This document shows, piece by piece, positions 52,040 to 60,123 of a stretch of 60,123 nt of DNA (within the stretch, counting starts at the first letter, position 1; every line of letters starts with the position of its first letter). Source of the DNA: an uncultured Gammaproteobacteria bacterium (GTDB taxonomy: Bacteria > Patescibacteriota > Patescibacteriia > UBA11705); contig CAZQEI010000001.1 of assembly GCA_964592195.1 (NCBI GenBank), forward strand, positions 52,885 to 113,007, in the 5' to 3' direction. The notes under the pieces were generated by a model. That model searched no databases and was not told the origin of the DNA. It saw only the letters and a list, made by a program, of their open reading frames with translations. The position numbers and the translations under genes are program-made.

Positions 52040-52080
52040 GTCATGTCATACGACATGACTGGCATATCGAATGATATGCC
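52040..52080. repeat. tandem double hairpin (TGTC-N4-GACA + TATC-N4-GATA)
   Basis: GTCATGTC-ATAC-GACATGAC-T-GGCATATC-GAAT-GATATGCC, flanked by CCGT on both sides. Confidence 0.75.
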
Positions 52081-52137
52081 GTAATAATCAAAAACTCCCC
52101 ATTACTGGAGAGTTCTTGGAGAAATATAATCTGTAGA

Positions 52138-52398
52138 TTAATTTCGAGGAGCTGAAGGTCGCGCTTCAGAAACATTGATGTTGCGACCGTCGATGGTGTA
52201 GCCATTGAATTGGCTGATAGCATTTTGCGCTTCTTCGTCCGTTGACATTTCAACGAAGCCAAAGCCGCGGCTGCGGCCGGTTTCGCGATCTGTGATCACG
52301 GTCGCTGACACGACGTTACCTGCTTGCGAAAATAACGCTTGCAAGTCTTCGCTCGTAGTCTTGAAGGGCAAACTACCGATGAATAACTTTTTCGCCAT
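52138..52398 (-). CDS. RRM RNA-binding protein
   Basis: RNP2 LFIGSL, RNP1 RGFGFVEM. Confidence 0.95.
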   Translation of the reverse strand: MAKKLFIGSLPFKTTSEDLQALFSQAGNVVSATVITDRETGRSRGFGFVEMSTDEEAQNAISQFNGYTIDGRNINVSEARPSAPRN

Positions 52399-52547
52399 AC
52401 TTGGATGGTGTAATAATTATTGTTTCAACCGACTGGATAACTTCTTATCCTGCCGACCTATCCAATAATTGTAATCAACTTCCCGTCGACCTTATTGTCC
52501 ACCCAAATATAACATATAACAAAGACAATAATCAGGAACTTTTTAAC

Positions 52548-52668
52548 TGGTGCAATCAGAGGGACTCGAACCCCCAGCCTCCTTGATTCGCCATGTCTTA
52601 CGACATAACAAAAAGCCAAGAAGACTTTCCAGTTGCAAACCTGTCGATCGACAGGCAGCTATGACTGC
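52548..52668 (-). other. tRNA-Arg-derived copy 3 with two hairpin inserts
   Basis: Acceptor stem, T-arm and CCA retained; inserts at 52591-52612 and 52636-52656. Confidence 0.85.
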
Positions 52669-52676
52669 TTATTTAT

Positions 52677-52798
52677 TGGTGCAGCCAGAGGGACTCGAAC
52701 CCCCAACCCCTTGGTTCGCCGCGTCATTCGACACGGCTTGAAGCCAAGAAACTTTATCCAGTTGCTTGCCCTGTCGCATGACAGGGAGCTATGACTGC
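52677..52798 (-). other. tRNA-Arg-derived copy 2 with two hairpin inserts
   Basis: 3' half identical to the tRNA; 22-nt inserts at 52719-52740 and 52765-52786. Confidence 0.88.
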
Positions 52799-53058
52799 CT
52801 ATATTTAATTTGAACTAGCAAATCTCGTATTTGTTGTCTTAACAACCTTTTACCTTCAGTAGTTTTTAAAAATTTCTCCCTACGAACAGCATCAGATTTC
52901 AATCGATAAACTTCATAATGTATTAATTCTAGTGGTAACTTTCCCTTTGTTGAATCTACCTTACCAGTCTCATGTTGCTTCAATCGTTTCGTTAAATCTT
53001 CAGTTTCTCCTGTATACAACGTATTATTATTTAGATGTAGGATATATACATAATGCAT
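52789..53058 (-). CDS. small GIY-YIG nuclease-family protein (89 aa)
   Basis: YVYIL...LYTG.T..L.KRL.QH, YE......A.RREK.LK; ATG 53058 lies 6 nt after the tRNA CCA. Confidence 0.92.
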   Translation of the reverse strand: MHYVYILHLNNNTLYTGETEDLTKRLKQHETGKVDSTKGKLPLELIHYEVYRLKSDAVRREKFLKTTEGKRLLRQQIRDLLVQIKYRQS

Positions 53059-53064
53059 ATTAAC

Positions 53065-53141
53065 TGGTGCAGCCAGAGGGACTCGAACCCCCAACCCCTT
53101 GGTTCGAAGCCAAGTACTCTATCCAGTTGAGCTATGACTGC
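53065..53141 (-). tRNA. tRNA-Arg(TCG)
   Basis: GCAGTCA/TGGCTGC acceptor, CTTGG-CTTCGAA-CCAAG anticodon arm, TTCGAGT T-loop, encoded CCA, 77 nt. Confidence 0.96.
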
Positions 53142-53306: not shown

Positions 53307-54005
53307 CTACACTCCCCAACCCTGCTTTTCAAGGGCTAATCGAGCGGCCGCTTCTTGGGCTTCTTGTTTACTGGAACCAGTGCCGGTAGCTAATAATTCT
53401 TTGTTAACGTAAACACCCACTTCAAAAGTCTTCGCATGATCAGGACCTTCTTCGCTTAAAACTTTGTAAACAGGTGTAGAACCAGAATGCTCCTGCGCCT
53501 GTTCTTGAAAATGTGTTTTGGGATCCATGTACAATTTCTTGTCCAAAATTTCTTTTAATTCTGGTAATAAGAAAGTATGCACAAATTCTTTTGCTTCTTT
53601 ATAGCCTTGATCTAAATAAATAGCTCCAGTCAAAGACTCAAAAGTATTGGATAAAATATAATTACGCGCTTTTCCAGTATCTTTCTGTTCTCCTTTGCTT
53701 AACAATAAAAATTCTTCCGCTCCAATCATTTTGGCAATCTTGGCCAACATAGTGCCATTTACCAAACTAGCGCGCCAATTGGTCAACTCGCCTTCCGGAT
53801 TTTTGAAGGTTGAATATAAATGTTCGGTTACAATTAATTCCAAAACTGCGTCACCTAAAAATTCTAAACGCTCATTGTGTTCCAAGGGAAAATCACGATG
53901 CTCATTTAAATACGAACGGTGAACAAACGCTTGTTGCAGCAATTCTTTGTTTTTAAATTTCACTTTGATGGCTTTTTCAAAAGCCGTAAATTTATTTTCT
54001 GACAT
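53307..54005 (-). CDS. rnc: ribonuclease III
   Basis: NERLEFLGDAVL signature, C-terminal dsRBD. Confidence 0.97.
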   Translation of the reverse strand: MSENKFTAFEKAIKVKFKNKELLQQAFVHRSYLNEHRDFPLEHNERLEFLGDAVLELIVTEHLYSTFKNPEGELTNWRASLVNGTMLAKIAKMIGAEEFLLLSKGEQKDTGKARNYILSNTFESLTGAIYLDQGYKEAKEFVHTFLLPELKEILDKKLYMDPKTHFQEQAQEHSGSTPVYKVLSEEGPDHAKTFEVGVYVNKELLATGTGSSKQEAQEAAARLALEKQGWGV

Positions 54006-59995: not shown

Positions 59996-60018
59996 GTGTG
60001 GTGTGGTATAATAGAATA

Positions 60019-60123
60019 TGTGGTCACCAGTTACTTCTGACCCTCCCTTTAGGGAGGATAAAAAGCTCTATCCCCCACATAAATGTGTGGTCACCAGTTA
60101 CTTCTGACCCTCCCTTTAGGGAG
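60019..60123 (+). repeat. direct repeat of at least 38 bp with 67-bp period, truncated at window end
   Basis: TGTGGTCACCAGTTACTTCTGACCCTCCCTTTAGGGAG at 60019-60056 and 60086-60123. Confidence 0.85.

Follow-up and report, generated by a model that had tools for sequence, protein, structure and literature searches.

How do short palindromes come to lie at the same two positions in neighbouring copies of one tRNA gene, with the same four nucleotides beside both palindromes of a copy? The question is raised by a stretch of 60,123 nucleotides (hereafter the window) from an uncultured Gammaproteobacteria bacterium, placed by GTDB in the lineage Bacteria; Patescibacteriota; Patescibacteriia; UBA11705 (GenBank assembly GCA_964592195.1, contig CAZQEI010000001.1, positions 52,885 to 113,007 of the forward strand). 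The genome measures 1.39 Mb in 40 contigs, with 38.7% GC and 96% completeness. Positions given without a contig name are window positions, and the copies, their inserts and the neighbouring genes are read on the minus strand. In that direction the locus consists of an RNase III gene, an intact tRNA-Arg(UCG) gene (copy 1), a small stand-alone GIY-YIG nuclease gene, two insert-bearing copies derived from tRNA-Arg(UCG) (copies 2 and 3) and the gene of an RRM-type protein.

A preliminary description of this DNA, made from the letters alone, took the repeated tetranucleotide to mean that the two inserts of a copy were not independent events, and likened the pattern to a target-site duplication, a recombination core or the paired guide and cleavage tetranucleotides of HUH systems. 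The reading that we favour, at a probability of about 0.55, is that copies 2 and 3 are non-functional displaced pseudo-tRNA-Arg(UCG) copies at a GIY-YIG locus, which were filled at the DNA level with palindromic units, each made of a hairpin and a 4-nt tail.

Results

Structure of the insert-bearing tRNA copies

Relative to copy 1 (53065-53141; anticodon UCG, CCA encoded, called by ARAGORN and scoring 66.4 bits against the Rfam tRNA family), the insertion sites are identical in both copies and fall between T12 and C13 in the D arm and between T34 and C35 in the anticodon loop. Copy 2 (52677-52798), with two inserts of 22 nt, reads tRNA 1-12, hairpin, CAAG, a 24-nt centre, CAAG, hairpin, and tRNA 35-76 followed by CCA. 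Copy 3 (52548-52668), which is more diverged, reads tRNA 1-12, hairpin, TTTG, a 23-nt centre, TTTG, hairpin, and again tRNA 35-76 with CCA. The tetranucleotides that bracket the centre, CAAG/CAAG in copy 2 and TTTG/TTTG in copy 3, were accurately described before; the extra G in the earlier layout of copy 2 is the final base of the 7-bp stem and not a separate nucleotide.

Insert 1 of copy 2 (52765-52786) is made of the 18-nt hairpin CCCTGTC-ATGC-GACAGGG (52769-52786) and CAAG (52765-52768), the central segment (tRNA positions 13-34; 52741-52764) is identical to copy 1 at 20 of its 24 positions, and insert 2 (52719-52740) is made of CAAG (52737-52740) and the 18-nt hairpin CCGTGTC-GAAT-GACGCGG (52719-52736). 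The two hairpins, with loops ATGC and GAAT, are mutually inverted in orientation, and the 5' 12 nt and 3' 42 nt of the copy are identical to copy 1. The corresponding parts of copy 3 are insert 1 (52636-52656), a 17-nt hairpin GCCTGTC-GATC-GACAGG (52640-52656) with TTTG (52636-52639); the central segment (52613-52635), identical to copy 2 at 22 of 24 positions and to copy 1 at 18 of 23; and insert 2 (52591-52612), in which TTTG (52609-52612) is followed by the 18-nt hairpin TTATGTC-GTAA-GACATGG (52591-52608). The 3' strand of the D stem is degraded in copy 2 and lost in copy 3. The copies lie in tandem with a gap of 8 nt. Contigs in two DNA sequencing runs, which may be from the source sample, are identical to the window through both copies, so the repeat pattern is not an error peculiar to the assembly.

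Neither copy is recognized as a tRNA gene. In this region ARAGORN called copy 1 only and missed copies 2 and 3 in intron mode as well; copy 3 scored 25.6 bits against the Rfam tRNA family, under the gathering score of 29, and Rfam gave no tRNA match for copy 2. The Rfam scan of the region yielded no family besides tRNA with a meaningful score. Both copies are nevertheless predicted to fold stably as RNA (copy 2, -56.8 kcal/mol, z -4.9; copy 3, -54.6 kcal/mol, z -5.4), with hairpin 1 in place of the D arm and hairpin 2 stacked on the anticodon stem; in copy 3 one long predicted helix connects the central segment with the variable region by way of hairpin 2.

Contigs of RNA libraries cover copy 3 in two runs (X3, 52510-52660; X4, 52366-52650), each with 0 differences and with both inserts retained. 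They connect copy 3 with the RRM gene leader and stop 8-18 nt before reaching the 5' end of copy 3, where the DNA contigs continue. These contigs come from one study and may include DNA carry-over, and we take them as weak evidence that agrees with unspliced transcription of copy 3. Copy 2 and the GIY-YIG gene have no RNA-contig cover, a gap to which we give no weight.

The palindromic hairpin family

The inserts belong to a family of palindromic mini-elements with a core GTC-ATNC-GAC and co-varying outer stems, which is found in many Patescibacteria genomes. The window's own genome (G000) holds 15 double-hairpin elements with the core Y-R-T-C-(ATNC or GNAT)-G-A-Y-R, around which the outer stem bases co-vary freely (GGCA/TGCC, GTCG/CGAC, GTGG/CCAC, GCCC/GGGC). 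Many dispersed copies, a conserved loop-proximal sequence and compensatory stem variation are thus combined as in REP-like or double-hairpin mini-elements. Single units are also present. One of 22 nt, a hairpin with CAAG, is nested within another hairpin's loop (C4:46532), and a partial 5' copy of tRNA-Leu(GAG) at C2:82903-83050 carries a 22-nt unit of hairpin and CTAA after G10 together with two more hairpins, with the intact tRNA-Leu(GAG) gene downstream.

A scan of species genomes with one stem variant, CCCTGTC-ATNC-GACAGGG, returned at least 121 loci. The matches listed lie in many Patescibacteria metagenome-assembled genomes, the remainder being mostly terminator-like chance matches in other phyla, and comprise 38 double, 84 single and 11 terminator-like occurrences. 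The same 18-nt hairpin is common to distant Patescibacteria lineages; only 2 matches to the pattern were found in viral contigs, with no sign of a phage vehicle. Among the matches listed, double units sit mostly in tRNA T loops or T-loop-like words, in the form GGTTCG-hairpin-CG-hairpin-CG-AATCC; TTCG precedes 23 of the 38, and the linkers between the two hairpins measure 0-2 nt and are mostly CG (24/38) or TG (9/38). Single units follow TCA, GCT and other words. Their usual 3' tail is CAAG, present after 12 of the 84 singles listed against about 0.3 expected, and otherwise CAGG, TAAA or TGAA; no relation between the left-flank word and the tail emerged when hairpin occurrences were compared across loci. 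The hairpin-plus-CAAG unit type of insert 1 of copy 2 recurs in other genomes. Units also nest within the loops of other units at GTCA|T. This nesting point is exact for units with CAAG or CAGG at L252, L242 and G000:C4:46532; at L252 the stem of the inserted hairpin is that of its host, as if copied from it.

Recurrent insertion sites in tRNA copies

The tRNA copies that host the hairpins are mostly displaced or partial, with the inserts in their loops, and the D-arm site TAGCT|C (12/13) recurs among them. It carries inserts in tRNA-Arg copies 2 and 3, in a partial tRNA-Asn copy on contig C15 and in cases on contigs C14 and C23 of the same genome, and among relatives in tRNA-Phe and other arrays of G007 and in copies of tRNA-Arg(GCG) and tRNA-Arg(UCG) elsewhere. 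At least three hairpin families use this site, and a tail of the form C-R-R-G occurs in 9 cases across three families. The screen for the D-site pattern was very noisy, giving 122 rows from which about a dozen real inserts were chosen by eye. The anticodon-loop site T34|C35 reads GGTTCG|AAG on the other strand, which matches the family's most frequent target word, that of the T loop; on the plus strand, insert 2 of copy 2 thus lies 3' of GGTTCG, a T-loop-like target. Pseudo-copies of tRNA-Arg in G018 (locus L014) break at the same GGCTT| point, and many more partial tRNA copies with palindromic inserts adjoin intact genes in the loci of relatives.

Several further arrangements were observed alongside these. 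The partial tRNA-Asn copy at G000:C15:8540-9006 has two double-hairpin inserts, one at 12/13 and one in the anticodon stem, both of the TCCGCC-NNN-GGCGGA family. After it come another small GIY-YIG gene and the intact tRNA-Asn gene, and the unit seems to be repeated in tandem across a gap of Ns. The palindrome CCTGCCTGCC-GGCAGGCAGG (G000:C5:30085-30150; L306, L311 and L014, the last with a loop variant) recurs in several genomes, within D loops or anticodon loops of partial tRNA-Gly, tRNA-Gln and tRNA-Arg copies. A conserved element of about 100 nt, present in three copies (G000:C1:131391, C5:30055 and C8:51349), ends in the T-arm-like GTTCGATTCTCCG; each copy adjoins a tRNA-Glu or tRNA-Gly gene and is oriented opposite to it.

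Linkage to a small GIY-YIG nuclease gene

The nuclease gene (52789-53058) encodes 89 amino acids with a GIY-YIG domain (Pfam PF01541, 54.4 bits, E 1.6e-14) and begins 6 nt downstream of copy 1's CCA. Its open reading frame (ORF) extends 10 nt into copy 2 (52789-52798), where the stop codon TAG is the conserved T8-A9-G10 of the tRNA. Homologues at E ≤ 1e-5 form 194 clusters of about 85-110 amino acids, 60-73% identical among the 120 listed. When the window protein was compared by tblastn with the 121 hairpin loci listed, which include only 200 nt of flank each, it placed a homologue at most that far from the hairpin in 13, against an estimated 0.2% or so by chance; in these 13 the ORF starts a few to tens of nucleotides past a hairpin-bearing tRNA piece or ends just before one. 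Homologues are carried by 38 of 41 related genomes, at 1-10 each and beside different tRNAs. The 29 loci examined in relatives contain 33 homologous ORFs; for 22 of these a tRNA gene is predicted no more than 300 nt away, in every case co-oriented. The chance of such proximity is estimated at about 2.6% (from 53 tRNAs in 1.39 Mb). The 53 tRNA genes that ARAGORN called in the genome include no tRNA-Arg with ACG, GCG or CCG, no Gln-CUG and no Thr-CGU, which missing contigs may explain.

Two genomes of the same order have the syntenic locus, anchored by the RNase III gene (ORF at 53307-54005, upstream of copy 1). At L288 this gene is followed by an intact tRNA-Arg(UCG), 8 nt, the GIY-YIG gene, and then GTCTTCG, a double hairpin and a tRNA 3' half that is identical to that of the intact tRNA-Arg(UCG). 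At L287 the order is RNase III gene, tRNA 5' half with a double hairpin and 12 nt, GIY-YIG gene, and intact tRNA-Arg. We read L288 and L287 as the two mirror-image results of a nuclease cassette that lodged in the anticodon loop and left one tRNA whole, and the window as showing a third, with full-length displaced copies. At C15, L088 and L053 partial tRNA copies and the nuclease gene are tandemly repeated together. A GIY-YIG domain, residence beside the presumed target tRNA and an arrangement that differs among L287, L288 and the window at a syntenic site are features of a free-standing homing cassette, and all three are found here.

Identity of the tetranucleotides within and beyond the locus

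In this genome two random tetranucleotides match with a probability of 0.0054, giving 2.9e-5 for both copies in exact register; with 3 x 3 registers allowed per copy the chance of both identities is at most 2.4e-3, before any discount for a pattern found post hoc. Copies 2 and 3 agree at 12 of 12 positions in the 5' part, 22 of 24 in the centre and 38 of 43 in the 3' part, while each tetranucleotide agrees at only 1 of 4, with the same change left and right. Since their centres resemble each other (22/24) more than either resembles that of copy 1 (20/24 and 18/23), the two copies share a common ancestral copy, and that ancestor probably carried the inserts already. Identity by chance is unlikely because, although the copies share derived changes, their tetranucleotides have diverged at 3 of 4 positions, left and right alike; the coupling of left and right within the locus is probably real.

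The behaviour of the wider family is different. Oppositely oriented hairpin pairs 16-46 nt apart were sought in 401 genomes of the class, five of which had a match, the window's own genome included, and in metagenome contigs, which gave at least 117 loci, with real stems in 17 of the 121 matches listed. A pair was dropped if its stems had under 3 extra Watson-Crick pairs, if its hairpins were less than 12 nt apart, or if a third hairpin core lay between them. Among the matches listed, and for the ATNC/GNAT loop pattern only, this left 13 non-redundant pairs, 12 from elsewhere and one from another place in the same genome; copy 2 falls outside this set by a T-G pair that fails the filter, and copy 3 by the lack of the loop pattern. 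The tetranucleotide after hairpin 1 was identical to that before hairpin 2 in 0 of 13 pairs and reverse-complementary in one. A shared tetranucleotide at most 2 nt from both hairpins was found in 1 of 13 real pairs against 2 of 156 mismatched pairings. The right-hand tetranucleotide was CTTG in 5 of the 13 and CCTG in 4, that is, the usual tail in reverse complement. The preliminary description had itself named, as the result that would count against it, a larger set in which the two sides match no more often than by chance, and this is the result obtained.

Judged from these pairs, the rule of the family is one tail per hairpin, on a side fixed by the orientation of the loop, giving CAAG...CTTG. 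The CAAG beside hairpin 1 of copy 2 is then best taken as the unit's own tail, and direct identity as a peculiarity of the window locus and not a family rule. By this rule the odd ones are the right CAAG of copy 2 and the left TTTG of copy 3, each of which equals its partner. When copies 2 and 3 were searched as DNA against 60 relatives, only the ordinary 3' half of tRNA-Arg matched, so there is no orthologous two-insert copy among them for comparison.

Three other accounts were set aside. Models of template switching, quasi-palindrome correction and inversion, worked by hand, predict reverse-complementary tetranucleotides and so fit the family norm CAAG...CTTG and not the window locus. An element that began with hairpin 2 of copy 2 and ended with hairpin 1 of copy 3 would have CAAG at one end and TTTG at the other, which is no duplication. 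If insert 2 is parsed as hairpin plus CGAA, with CAAG and TTTG as mutated loop bases, TTTG shares 0 of 4 bases with CGAA.

Other features of the window

Downstream of copy 3 lie the RRM-protein gene (ORF at 52138-52398) and, at 52040-52081 (C1:104924-104965, no strand assigned), the only double-hairpin element of the hairpins' own family that the genome scan found within the window. A further array, of tandem units of about 75 nt with the hairpin CCCTCCC-TTT-AGGGAGG, runs from 60016-60123 of the window onward to G000:C1:113260 with a gap of Ns inside, and a Y1 (PF01797) gene lies directly downstream (C1:113281-113610), a REP/RAYT-like layout with a different repeat family. Beside a second Y1 gene (C2:147296-147589, minus strand) are AAGGGGT...ACCCCTT hairpins (C2:147100-147200; 12 in the genome), and on its other side is a longer, uvrC-like GIY-YIG ORF.

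Discussion

From the anatomy of the copies, the hairpin family, the recurrent sites and the linkage to GIY-YIG genes we infer a causal role for the nuclease, an order of events and a purpose for the hairpins. The nuclease, or the repair of its breaks, would first duplicate all or part of the neighbouring tRNA gene, with the intact gene always retained and a displaced copy left behind. Palindromic units would then be written into the loop positions of the displaced copy, destroying it as a tRNA and possibly as a target of the nuclease. The displaced copy would finally be transcribed, unspliced, within the neighbouring message.

Several observations weigh against this reading. In relatives of genus g12 the GIY-YIG gene lies between tRNA-Arg and tRNA-Lys with no duplicated tRNA, so the nuclease gene is not always accompanied by displaced copies; and the connection of the window nuclease with hairpins and tRNAs is one of adjacency. 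Removal of the units in silico yields a tRNA-Arg that ARAGORN accepts, which makes a spliced product conceivable, and the RNA runs are contigs of one study that may contain DNA. The displaced-copy model also does not predict identity within a copy; the parallel change at 3 of 4 positions beside a centre conserved at 22 of 24 argues for some coupling mechanism, and against a family norm that sets CTTG or CCTG opposite CAAG, both CAAG/CAAG and TTTG/TTTG are doubly unusual.

What, then, of the claim that the two inserts are not independent? Identity within each copy is hard to explain by independent junctions, and to that extent the claim stands; as a property of the family it does not, given 0 of 13 other pairs. 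Our leading guess, which we hold at a little under even odds, is that both junctions were made or renewed in one event from one donor. Coincidence takes a little less than a third of the weight, and the rest goes to structural selection or to something unseen. As the identity is not a family rule, it is unfit for inferring a target-site duplication or an HUH mechanism. A target-site duplication in particular would flank the inserts, whereas these repeats flank the resident tRNA segment, and CAAG is absent from the intact tRNA at either site; CAAG, or C-R-R-G, is instead a constant tail of the unit in unrelated contexts and genomes, also after other hairpin families at the D-arm site, and the 13 pairs likewise speak against such duplication as a family property.

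The alternative that survives best is a single reaction in which the hairpins are the halves of one double-hairpin site and the centre was cut out and put back, or captured, through a 4-nt overlap. We think it unlikely, though less so than the others. Direct repeats around a segment are the signature of such reactions (target-site duplication, attL/attR core), both tetranucleotides changed in parallel between copies that share derived changes of the centre, and there are forms that resemble an empty site, a double hairpin linking a tRNA 5' part straight to a 3' part with the middle absent (at L053, tRNA 1-21 to AATCC). The absence of identity in the 13 other separated pairs does not fit this, nor do the linkers of the double hairpins, which are not 4 nt long, and no recombinase is assigned. 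The excised segments of 23-28 nt and hairpin-hairpin junctions that the preliminary description had suggested looking for, and any joint lacking the segment, were absent from the DNA contigs of the two runs, in which rare forms would be hidden; one apparent row bridging 52580 to 53116 was a foreign tRNA contig that spans conserved arms.

A bolder version unites this reaction with the favoured reading. The hairpin-and-tail units and the 85-90-amino-acid GIY-YIG gene would form one undescribed selfish system of Patescibacteria, which attacks tRNA genes at the two words best conserved in them, the D arm (TAGCT|C) and TTCG| loops, always regenerates an intact tRNA and writes palindromes into the displaced copy, both centre junctions being made by a single hairpin-directed cut-and-join with a 4-nt overlap. 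We regard it as a long shot.

Similarly doubtful, and compatible with displaced copies, is the possibility that the 5' leader of the RRM mRNA now uses copy 3 as an exapted long stem-loop or tRNA-like processing signal, with the tetranucleotides shaped by pairing. In its favour, the RNA-library contigs described above join copy 3 to that leader and stop near its 5' end, the variable-region changes of copy 3 lengthen the anticodon/hairpin-2 helix, and TTTG is predicted to pair with C35-A38. These data are contigs from one study whose strand and end information is untrustworthy, and copy 2 lacks RNA cover; pairing moreover explains the final G shared by both tetranucleotides and not their identity.

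If the units of 21-22 nt were instead RNA mini-introns, their removal from the transcript would turn copies 2 and 3 into working tRNA-Arg. Exact removal in silico indeed gives a tRNA-Arg(tcg) call for both copies, the inserts occupy loops as archaeal non-canonical tRNA introns do, units are nested in the loops of others at a fixed point, and the unmodified copies have cloverleaf-like predicted folds with the low z values given above. We nevertheless consider splicing improbable. The product would duplicate the anticodon of the intact gene next to it and so is unneeded, the missing Arg isoacceptors are not supplied, copy 3 has no 3' strand of the D stem, and hairpin-bearing copies in other genomes are mostly truncated pieces from which no tRNA could ever be made. 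The RNA-library contigs, in which small mature tRNAs would not assemble, retain both inserts of copy 3. Mitochondrial double-hairpin elements likewise stay in transcripts, according to one report (PMC2800124).

Least probable of all is an HUH system (IS200/IS605 or REP/RAYT), in which the tetranucleotides would be the guide and cleavage words of a Y1 transposase binding single-stranded hairpins. In its favour are two PF01797 proteins encoded in the genome, the REP/BIME-like inverted pairs of the hairpin family, and the TTCG before double units, which is reminiscent of IS200/IS605 target choice. Against it, the repeats beside both Y1 genes belong to other families (arrays of CCCTCCC-TTT-AGGGAGGG at C1:112.9-113.3 kb and, at C2:147.1 kb, hairpins of AAGGGGT...ACCCCTT), copy 2 has its hairpins in inverted orientation where an IS200/IS605-type enzyme requires its two end hairpins on a single strand, the family tails are CAAG against CTTG, the tetranucleotide faces the segment at both hairpins in a mismatch with left-end and right-end geometry, and the cross-genome linkage is to GIY-YIG, PF01797 not having been tallied in relatives. 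In the IS608 model the end hairpins have the same orientation on one strand, and the guide and cleavage tetranucleotides stand at set distances.

Relation to known systems

The displaced copies and their units share traits with several described systems. REP/BIME sequences with RAYT in Proteobacteria are likewise short imperfect palindromes with a conserved flanking tetranucleotide, inverted pairs and tens of copies per genome, mostly intergenic. Here, in contrast, the units lie inside the loops of tRNA copies and inside each other, the linked gene is GIY-YIG, the genome's own Y1 genes carry other repeats, and one 18-nt hairpin is found across distant lineages. With IS200/IS605 and PATEs the units have in common subterminal hairpins and, for most of the double units listed, insertion 3' of a fixed short word (TTCG); they differ in being inverted, in measuring 20-40 nt with no internal sequence and no cognate TnpA identified, and in a tetranucleotide geometry that does not fit the IS608 model.

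A further parallel is offered by the mitochondrial double-hairpin elements, GC clusters and hairpin repeats of fungi and sponges, tiny single or double hairpins with conserved stems that invade intergenic regions and structural RNA genes. In Allomyces, double-hairpin elements are reported to accompany a mobile endonuclease ORF with a replacement gene end. The present units differ in their location on a bacterial chromosome, their tRNA-loop targets at defined nucleotides and their orientation-specific 4-nt tail.

In phage T4, segB is also a GIY-YIG gene among tRNA genes, and its product reportedly drives the segmental amplification of a tRNA locus (PMC13096335). The window protein, at 89 amino acids, has the catalytic domain only with no DNA-binding extension, and it is cellular (the hairpin occurs in only 2 viral contigs). 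To our knowledge, palindromic units at junctions are not a feature of SegB. Archaeal non-canonical tRNA introns of the bulge-helix-bulge type resemble the inserts in their length of 12-30 nt, in their positions in the D loop, anticodon and T loop, and in the use of similar inserts at different sites; here no bulge-helix-bulge motif is evident and the host copies are redundant or truncated. We know of no archaeal-type tRNA splicing endonuclease in bacteria, and this genome was not searched for one.

The literature searched held no description of hairpin units in Patescibacteria tRNA genes or of their link to GIY-YIG. A 2024 study of insertions in rRNA genes of the Candidate Phyla Radiation mentions GIY-YIG proteins, and the words tRNA and hairpin are absent from its main text (PMC11270868).

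Conclusions

Genomes of Patescibacteria are tiny, with little room for junk, and yet the genomes examined repeatedly contain displaced tRNA pieces that are filled with sequence-conserved palindromes and linked to a multi-copy mini-nuclease gene. Should this link be causal, a homing-type nuclease would have a new means of persisting on essential, invariant genes while its host survives, and the link would be a source of tandem amplification of tRNA genes. The displaced copies would then also confound tRNA annotation and reports of tRNA introns in these lineages, and the units of 18-22 nt would be among the smallest known mobile or templated DNA modules.

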